From: Alphaproteobacteria bacterium
GTDB lineage: Bacteria > Pseudomonadota > Alphaproteobacteria > Paracaedibacterales > JAKBAR01
Assembly: GCA_019745755.1 (NCBI GenBank)
Contig: JAIESS010000017.1
Span: forward strand, 1 to 27,376
DNA: 27,376 bases
Direction of reading: 5' to 3'
Shown: piece by piece, positions 3,689 through 4,696 of the stretch
Position numbering within the stretch: position 1 is the stretch's first letter
How the letters are laid out: each line of letters begins with the position of its first letter
Translations under genes and position numbers: made by a program
The notes under the pieces: generated by a model
The model's input: the letters and a program-made list of their open reading frames with translations, nothing else
What the model was told of the DNA's origin: nothing
Database searches by the model: none

Positions 3689-4696
3689 TTAGCCCCATAC
3701 TTTTGCGGAGGAAGAATCATAAAAATATAATCCATTTTCTCTTCCACTATTCATCTCCTTTAAAAGAGAGATAATCTTTTGATTCTCTTCAAGTTTTTCG
3801 TCTCCAAAGAGCCCCACATACAAATCTTTATTGTTATTCAAAAGCTTTATAAGATGTTGATCATTCTCCTTAAAAGCGAACCCAAAAATGAACAAGCAGG
3901 ATTTTATTGATTGTAAACTCCTATAACATCTTGATAAATAACCATGATGCATAATTTGTTCAAGTTTGTCCTCTGATCGTCCTCCAGAAACAAAAATAGG
4001 GTATTCTTTTTTTCGGAGATACGATGAAATTTGCTCTTTTAGAGGAATATTTGTTCTGTTAAAAGTAAGTTTTTTTGCTTTTGCACCATTATCTAATATG
4101 TGCATAGCACCATGAAGATACAGAAGGTTTGCTTTTATATCATCCCCCAGTTGCCATTCCACAAAATCCTGATTATTATCTGATCGGTTTCCAAAGCCAT
4201 CATTAAACTTAGTTGGAAGTGTTTTGGAATTATTAATTACCCAACATAACAACAAATCGTAATTTATTGTGTAAATCCCTTCAAAATTGCCAAGAAAATC
4301 CTCACAATTTTTGTATTTCGTATCTTCTATTGTACTTGGCAAATCCGGGTGAGTTTTGGAAATGGTTTCTAATAAAATACGCATTAGAAGACGAATATCT
4401 TTTTTAATTTCTTTGTCATCGTATCCGTACTTTTTTATATATGTTTGGCTGGTGTGTAGCTCCTTAATAATTCCCTCTAAATCGTTCTTATGACGTTTAG
4501 AAAGAAATTTCTTAGCTGTAGCTGAAAGTTCCGGATAGGATGCTGATTTTTTAGCTTCTTTAAATAACTCTTGATACGAAAATTTATTGGATACGGCTCT
4601 ACTGAATCCATTGCCAAGAAAAATGTACGGTTTCTTATCCTTATTATCTTTCTTGGCTTTTTCTATGGCTTGTGAGAACGTTAGAAGCTCTGTCAT
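3689..4696 (-). CDS. DUF4917-type / SIR2-like domain protein
   Basis: Ordered motifs FLGNGFS, YTINYDLLL, DGF, YLHGAMH, PIFVSGG..EDKL, IFGFAFKENDQHL and FYDSSSAKVW match DUF4917/SIR2_2-like proteins as I recognise them. The ORF-track start at 4699 is TTG; ATG at 4696 preferred. Visibly lower GC than its neighbours. Confidence 0.8.
   Translation of the reverse strand: MTELLTFSQAIEKAKKDNKDKKPYIFLGNGFSRAVSNKFSYQELFKEAKKSASYPELSATAKKFLSKRHKNDLEGIIKELHTSQTYIKKYGYDDKEIKKDIRLLMRILLETISKTHPDLPSTIEDTKYKNCEDFLGNFEGIYTINYDLLLCWVINNSKTLPTKFNDGFGNRSDNNQDFVEWQLGDDIKANLLYLHGAMHILDNGAKAKKLTFNRTNIPLKEQISSYLRKKEYPIFVSGGRSEDKLEQIMHHGYLSRCYRSLQSIKSCLFIFGFAFKENDQHLIKLLNNNKDLYVGLFGDEKLEENQKIISLLKEMNSGRENGLYFYDSSSAKVWG

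Follow-up and report, generated by a model that had tools for sequence, protein, structure and literature searches.

DUF4917 (PF16263) is a large and taxonomically promiscuous protein family, the sole experimental description of which, as a secreted virulence sirtuin, is at odds with the genomic context of the family. The member described is SliP of Campylobacter jejuni (CJJ81176_0779), which exhibited modest in vitro hydrolysis of nicotinamide adenine dinucleotide (NAD+) that was dependent on a G-N-G loop. It was reported to be a flagellum-exported deacetylase acting on neutrophil histones, and its gene is co-operonic with hsdR, which encodes the R subunit of a type I restriction-modification (R-M) system (PMC10421069). 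The same family is listed in PADLOC as PDC-S21, a guilt-by-embedding phage-defence candidate (single gene 21); PDC systems are genes that lie inside BREX, DISARM, or type I R-M loci and were listed as candidates (10.1101/2024.01.29.577857). Our literature search did not identify a paper naming PDC-S21 or linking DUF4917 to defence. We herein describe a DUF4917 gene, the product of which is designated P0001, in a 27,376-nt stretch of DNA from an alphaproteobacterium; this whole stretch was analysed and is referred to as the window. It is nearly certain that P0001 is a SIR2-fold protein of the DUF4917/PDC-S21 family that was horizontally acquired and has no partner. It is a divergent addition to a catalogued candidate family and no new kind of system.

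P0001 resembles PDC-S21/DUF4917 proteins in its full-length hidden Markov model matches, length, invariant residues, and single-domain build. However, it is not more than 43% identical to any member found and sits on a very long branch. Furthermore, whereas PDC-S21 is defined by embedding in type I R-M, BREX, or DISARM systems, the present gene lies outside of them, alone between mlaA and a gene for a small exported protein of the Excalibur type in a reduced genome. P0001 shares with SliP the Pfam family, the G-N-G NAD loop, and a single gene of similar size, but has no evident export route or R-M neighbour; SliP was compared by description, not by sequence.

Among better characterized SIR2 systems, the closest solved structure is the SIR2 subunit of SIR2-HerA (PDB 8su9/8sub/8j4u), which is similar in size and also has no extra sensor domain. 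Nevertheless, its sequence identity to P0001 is 14-18%, PADLOC did not match P0001 to the models of this system, and SIR2-HerA needs its HerA partner, with which it forms a 12:6 complex, whereas no HerA gene is adjacent to that of P0001. ThsA and DSR2 have the same SIR2 NAD+-hydrolysing (NADase) core with a catalytic pair of Asn and His (Foldseek E 4.5e-5 and 1.3e-4, respectively). In contrast to P0001, ThsA senses signals through its own SLOG or Macro domain and is partnered by a TIR protein; neither domain was present in the single-domain P0001, and PADLOC returned no match to ThsA/ThsB. DSR2 also differs: proteins of the DSR1/DSR2 type are ~1000 aa long and carry an extensive sensor region at the C terminus, which senses the tail tube in DSR2, while P0001 has 335 aa and one domain.

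The lactococcal abortive infection protein AbiH (PF14253) is, similar to P0001, a single-gene, SIR2-like defence protein of ~300 aa. In the ESM Atlas, AbiH is structurally close to a DUF4917 cluster representative (TM 0.59-0.63), a value measured on another member, not P0001, and neither Pfam nor PADLOC matched P0001 to AbiH. The anticodon nuclease PrrC is an effector whose gene usually lies inside a type I R-M operon and whose activity is kept latent by the R-M complex. PrrC is a works-like analogy only; its fold and chemistry (ABC-ATPase plus nuclease) are unrelated to those of P0001, and a guard mechanism for DUF4917 may be proposed by analogy only.

Fold and conserved residues of P0001

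The gene is an uninterrupted frame of 335 codons on the minus strand, with ATG at 4696 and the stop codon at 3689-3691; an in-frame TTG at 4699, one codon upstream, is an alternative start. An original prediction, made from the letters of the DNA, had recognized three motifs in SIR2 order, and all were present in this intact open reading frame (ORF): G28-N29-G30-F31-S32, T143-I144-N145-Y146-D147, and Y193-L194-H195-G196. An exact-sequence look-up of P0001 returned no match. Pfam aligned residues 25-334 with positions 1-311 of the 311-position DUF4917 profile (E 8e-55; 186.8 bits vs a cut-off of 28), a whole-genome search for the family recovered the same gene, and SIR2_2 showed a weak match. 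The PDC-S21 models of PADLOC also matched P0001 (PDLC04960, E 1e-94 over 1-334/336; PDLC04961, E 2e-64). In an alignment of 46 family sequences, 22 positions were invariant, including N145, D147, H195, and G196, while G28, N29, G30, and S32 of the GNGFS loop were kept in at least 90% of members. P0001 ends in AKVWG, with the final W334 and G335 being invariant in the family, and retains 63 of the 71 strongly conserved columns (89%), a value inside the range spanned by other members.

AlphaFold2 with the 46-sequence alignment predicted a single compact SIR2 domain (pLDDT 91.4, pTM 0.90). In this model, each motif follows a beta-strand, the arrangement of a Rossmann-type SIR2 core: G28-N29-G30 after strand 24-27, N145 and D147 after 140-143, and H195-G196 after 191-194. 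Foldseek returned 65 matches in the PDB at E up to 0.001. The best was the SIR2 subunit of SIR2-HerA/Nezha (E 2e-10, TMq 0.64, probability 1.0), followed by KomBC, ThsA, DSR2, and SPARSA, and the top 27 matches were SIR2-HerA, KomBC, and ThsA (E 2e-10 to 4.5e-5). Sirtuin deacetylases, such as human SIRT2 and the yeast Sir2-type Hst2, were ranked lower (E of at least 7.5e-5, TMq up to 0.46). The predicted structure of P0001 is, thus, closer to immune SIR2s than to sirtuins, and this ranking agrees with the published division of the superfamily into these two groups (10.1101/2024.09.18.613514). Similarly, P0001 did not match the sirtuin family PF02146 at E up to 0.01, and a CxxC or Zn-binding Cys module was absent, its four Cys being scattered. 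The SIR2 relationship was recovered among solved structures by the fold search only; a family-profile sequence search of these structures did not return a SIR2 entry, only a chance match at E 0.19. The Foldseek matches and the invariant N145, D147, H195, and G196 bear out the expectation of a SIR2-like fold with intact NAD-site residues.

A self-regulatory C-terminal region had also been suggested. This idea is unsupported because P0001 has no sensor domain, its C-terminal third is part of the fold, with beta-alpha units inside the Rossmann fold of the single compact domain, and conservation extends to the last residue.

Origin, distribution, and alleles

According to nuoD, the host is an alphaproteobacterium related to Candidatus Paracaedibacter and Odyssella. 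Its assembly is small (1.31 Mb at 70% completeness), and the genomes of the order are 1.1-2.8 Mb. The guanine-cytosine content (GC) of the DUF4917 gene is 32.8%, or 28.6% at third codon positions (GC3), vs 42.1% for the 1.31-Mb assembly, 44.0% for mlaA, 46.7% for nuoD, and 47.4% for alaS, and the contrast with the last two, originally estimated from spot counts, was reproduced. Among the 765 genome ORFs that are 200 aa or longer, none has a lower GC, and an equally low value occurs in only 0.2% of 1008-nt genome windows.

The gene was not found in two genomes of the same genus (G001 and G002, 95-98% complete) or in another genus of the family (G003). A search of 61 other species of the order identified DUF4917-like genes in four (five genes in all), which were weak and partial matches (up to 64.5 bits vs 186.7 here); the four loci fetched were also low in GC. 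The best homologue among 5.8 billion proteins was 39-41% identical, and identity over the full length did not exceed 43% among 1.8 billion cluster representatives, although more than 2,000 clusters (50% identity) of the family reached E 1e-3. In a maximum-likelihood tree, P0001 grouped with a Legionella pneumophila fragment and a Micavibrio protein (support 100/98) on a terminal branch of 1.67, vs a median of 0.22; in the rest of the tree, phyla were freely intermixed and taxonomy was not followed. Homologues were present on 36 plasmids and in no phage record. Since a viral structure library (E up to 0.001) and a tblastn search of a phage genome collection both returned no match, nothing points to a phage-borne origin. 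Horizontal acquisition is well supported by the foreign composition, patchy distribution, distant homologues, and phylum-mixing tree, and this part of the original prediction was upheld.

In contrast, a clean insertion behind mlaA, which had also been proposed, was not demonstrable. The mlaA orthologues of the same-genus genomes are 72-78% identical, but have a different neighbourhood; in both G001 and G002, mlaA is on one contig and nuoB on another, with no synteny on either flank. Since mlaA and nuoB are not neighbours in these genomes, we consider the whole locus to be rearranged. Meaningful direct or inverted repeats were not detected around the gene, Pfam and PADLOC did not reveal an integrase or transposase in the window, and no terminator was present at the gene boundaries.

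The stretch was found in many metagenomes from drinking water, bioreactors, wastewater, freshwater, and biofilms. Partial pieces in two bioreactor runs and one wastewater run of another study (X2, X3, and X4) were identical to the window allele. A drinking-water run (X1, contig L099) contained an allele that was 99.6% identical, with 4 differences in 984 nt: two were nonsense changes (codon 92, TAC>TAG; codon 280, CAA>TAA), and the other two were missense. The DUF4917 and Excalibur genes are in the same order in L099 and the window; however, the spacer between them has ~30 differences in 128 nt (~24%), starting right after the DUF4917 stop codon. With 4 differences in the gene followed by this divergence, the gene behaves as a sharply bounded and recently exchanged module. 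The two nonsense codons in a sister strain also suggest that at least one population can dispense with it.

The mosaic comparison covered L099 1-2067 and window 3205-4672. The Excalibur gene of L099 diverges from that of the window by ~3% in its 5' part and by ~30% over the final 85 nt; homology stops there, and nuoB is replaced by a DUF3471/beta-lactamase-like gene. Elsewhere in run X1, pieces of nuoB-C are ~99.8% identical to the window and pieces of mlaA only 86-89%.

Homologue loci and the proposed function

We examined 74 homologue loci from genome contigs, in which genes were called crudely and neighbours were clustered. The commonest neighbour families were type I R-M subunits (HsdM/HsdS and two kinds of HsdR). 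Type I R-M genes were present within four genes on either side in 23 of the 74 loci, always on the same strand, and flanked both sides in 7 of these 23; among the loci with a complete view of both sides, the association was found in 15 of 46. Further recurrent neighbours were the YhcG/DUF1016 nuclease, the YgjP peptidase, DUF4238, DUF5655, and ABC-type ATPases, which are typical cargo of R-M loci. The nearest full-length relative, from Micavibrio (L024), is located between hsdS and hsdR beside a MobA relaxase. The split gene of L. pneumophila (L104 7765-8867; 82-aa and 288-aa pieces) is in an island with a DUF927 protein, a RelB/YafQ toxin-antitoxin pair, and a tyrosine integrase. A Leptospira plasmid copy is among toxin-antitoxin and transposase genes, and a Roseomonas plasmid copy is beside recombinase/transposase genes near a DNA methyltransferase. 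These contexts independently reproduce the basis of the PDC listing in PADLOC (10.1101/2024.01.29.577857). The check that had been suggested with PADLOC and homologue neighbourhoods yielded both a PDC-S21 match for P0001 and type I R-M genes near homologues.

Additional features were noted in two loci. Three ORFs without Pfam matches in L024 (5133-6062, 7387-7989, and 9016-9888; 310, 201, and 291 aa, respectively) sit with the DUF4917 gene between hsdM/hsdS and hsdR and may be extra embedded cargo. In a genome of the same order (G016; L003 631-2386, minus strand), a DUF4917-like/PDC-S21-like gene overlaps a DUF3644/HEPN gene by ~40 nt. The latter was identified by PADLOC as PDC-S19 (E 5e-69), and the two genes may together form a candidate cassette in this small, related genome.

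We consider the DUF4917 gene to encode a NAD+-consuming, defence-type (abortive) effector with an in-trans trigger, with a probability of approximately 0.55. In this reading, a stand-alone, sensor-less SIR2 gene of the immune branch reached a Paracaedibacter/Odyssella-like host by horizontal transfer. P0001 is predicted to bind NAD+ and cleave the nicotinamide-ribose bond, and an infection trigger may lead to the depletion of NAD+ and the abortion of phage replication, as for ThsA, DSR2, and SIR2-HerA. Because P0001 has no sensor domain and type I R-M genes accompany one third of its relatives on the same strand, the trigger of the family would most likely act in trans and may be a phage product or the loss of R-M integrity, as in the guard logic of PrrC. 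The copy in the window presumably lost, or never had, the R-M context and is probably transcribed from the mlaA promoter. As SliP is reported to hydrolyse NAD+, NAD+ turnover by the family has some direct support.

Several points weigh against this function. The literature searched did not contain an anti-phage phenotype for any DUF4917/PDC-S21 protein, and the sole experimental study on the family assigned a secreted deacetylase role (SliP, PMC10421069). PADLOC did not identify a known defence gene beside the DUF4917 gene or elsewhere in the window, and HsdR (HSDR_N) was not found in the 70%-complete assembly. The host is probably intracellular or protist-associated, a setting in which phage pressure may be low. 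N145 and H195 were equated with the SIR2 active site by motif order and secondary-structure topology, not by residue superposition. Moreover, two premature stops interrupt the sister allele, and all four allele substitutions change the protein, which gives no indication of purifying selection on the gene. The defence NADase of the original prediction stands as the best reading, but it rests on family-level context and has to be set against the deacetylase reported for SliP.

Another explanation is that the gene is a passenger in decay: an orphan left over from a mobile cassette of the type I R-M-embedded kind, functionless in this lineage and heading for loss. The Y92* and Q280* stops of the L099 allele, in which the other two differences are also non-synonymous, are expected for such a remnant, as are the split relative in L. 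pneumophila, the very long terminal branch, the missing R-M partner in the incomplete assembly, and the failure to find the gene in the other searched genomes of the genus and family. However, the window allele is uninterrupted, its invariant residues are all in place, and it keeps 89% of strongly conserved columns; the partial pieces in X2, X3, and X4 are identical to it, and the gene has a good ribosome-binding site and tight coupling to mlaA. We regard decay as doubtful, although it deserves consideration. SliP offers a different perspective: P0001 may be a sirtuin that the presumably intracellular or protist-associated bacterium exports and that deacylates or ADP-ribosylates proteins of its host, such as histones. 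SliP shares its Pfam family and G-N-G loop with P0001 and was reported to be a secreted NAD+-dependent deacetylase of neutrophil histones (PMC10421069). The small genome, the kinship of nuoD with the amoeba symbionts Paracaedibacter and Odyssella, the abundance of exported proteins in the window, the ABC/HlyD exporter adjoining mlaA, and the clade with Legionella and Micavibrio also fit with this role. On the other hand, P0001 has no signal peptide, its N terminus leading directly to beta1 and the GNG loop, and its C terminus is the family-invariant AKVWG instead of a lineage-specific secretion tail, with no RTX-type repeats. The two closest relatives are in a type I R-M operon and an integrase/toxin-antitoxin island, not effector contexts; the family has a wide distribution in free-living Planctomycetota, Acidobacteriota, and Chloroflexota; the gene of SliP shares an operon with hsdR; and P0001 has no Zn-binding Cys module and is structurally nearer to immune SIR2s than to sirtuins. 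A role in the eukaryotic host is, therefore, unlikely in our view.

A housekeeping, CobB-type NAD+-dependent protein deacylase that regulates metabolism would share the SIR2 fold and NAD-site motif set, and in vitro deacetylation was reported for SliP; nevertheless, the absence of a sirtuin Pfam match and CxxC/Zn module, the position of sirtuins below immune SIR2s in the structural ranking, the foreign composition, and the failure to find the gene in close relatives make this role very improbable. We also speculate, as a long shot, that DUF4917 proteins are sensor-less guard NADases that monitor a type I R-M complex and fire when a phage anti-restriction factor disables it, combining the logic of PrrC with SIR2 chemistry, and that the orphan in the window was rewired as an autonomous suicide module under the mlaA (envelope-lipid) transcription unit or as a SliP-like host-directed sirtuin. 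If this is true, the contested effector story of SliP would be tied to an immune origin. Returning to the defence effector, a sensor-less protein of 335 aa that still needs silencing represents a clean model for the control of minimal SIR2 NADases. The copy in the window provides a divergent example without a partner gene from a reduced genome, together with a natural pair of intact and nonsense alleles, which makes the autonomy and cost of the gene directly testable.

Surroundings of the gene in the window

The features of the locus are summarized in Table 1. As originally described, the DUF4917 gene starts 24 nt past the mlaA stop with a purine-rich ribosome-binding site: on the minus strand, the TAG stop codon of mlaA is followed by the spacer and then the DUF4917 ATG. 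No promoter-like or terminator-like site was detected in this spacer, and the sole candidate promoter region upstream of the pair is the divergent region beyond mlaA. It is plausible that mlaA and the DUF4917 gene form a putative co-transcribed unit, probably driven by the mlaA promoter. A promoter scan gave 8 matches vs 7.8 in shuffles, which is no excess and says nothing on an own promoter of the DUF4917 gene. The downstream spacer did not contain an intrinsic terminator (fold z-score -0.95).

Table 1. Coordinates of the DUF4917 gene and adjoining features in the window
Feature	Position	Strand	Description and basis
DUF4917/PDC-S21 gene (P0001)	3689..4696	-	335-aa single-domain SIR2-fold protein; ORF, Pfam, PADLOC, AlphaFold2, Foldseek
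mlaA-DUF4917 spacer	4697..4720	-	24 nt, purine-rich Shine-Dalgarno-like stretch GGGGAAAGAGGAAG
mlaA	4721..5551	-	Upstream, same strand; Pfam MlaA E 2.5e-66
Downstream spacer	3561..3688	-	128 nt, AT-rich, GC 32%
Excalibur-type exported protein	3204..3560	-	118 aa; translation; L099 allele with precomputed PF05901 match
Divergent mlaA/ABC-exporter control region	5552..5730	.	Two TTAA-N7-TTAA boxes, 5604 and 5667

The lack of a neighbouring partner gene was confirmed with Pfam and PADLOC, which did not identify HerA, TIR, Argonaute, STAND, or reverse transcriptase genes in the window; PADLOC also gave no SIR2 or HerA match among the window proteins. The mad3, AriA, and mad2 matches of PADLOC on two ABC proteins and TrmB were partial, reflected generic ATPase/methyltransferase similarity, and were rejected as partners.

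A cluster encoding a two-ABC plus HlyD exporter occupies window positions 5731-11073 on the plus strand, with GC of 39.8-40.9%, below that of the genome, and GC3 of 30-35%. It was not found beside mlaA in the same-genus genomes, in which a weak ABC match (25-27%) was noted near nuoB in G001. Perfect TTAA-N7-TTAA sites occur five times in the window (5604, 5667, 11213, 18961, and 24499), vs 1.31 expected, and this number was reached in 2 of 100 shuffles; two of the five are within the divergent region between mlaA and the exporter.

The slot between the DUF4917 gene and nuoB had been assigned to nuoA; the gene there instead encodes the Excalibur-type protein, which has a signal peptide and a C-terminal Cys/DxDxDG motif. 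A listed ORF at 3149-3475 on the minus strand was rejected because it is in the wrong frame and has a low-complexity basic sequence. nuoA was not seen directly upstream of nuoB here or in two same-genus genomes; the remainder of the genome was not searched for it. The regions upstream of nuoB were compared in these three genomes (window 3062-3203; L017 ~10700-11168; L018 ~3078-3500), and all three contain a short conserved non-coding stretch, located at approximately 3095-3135 in the window.

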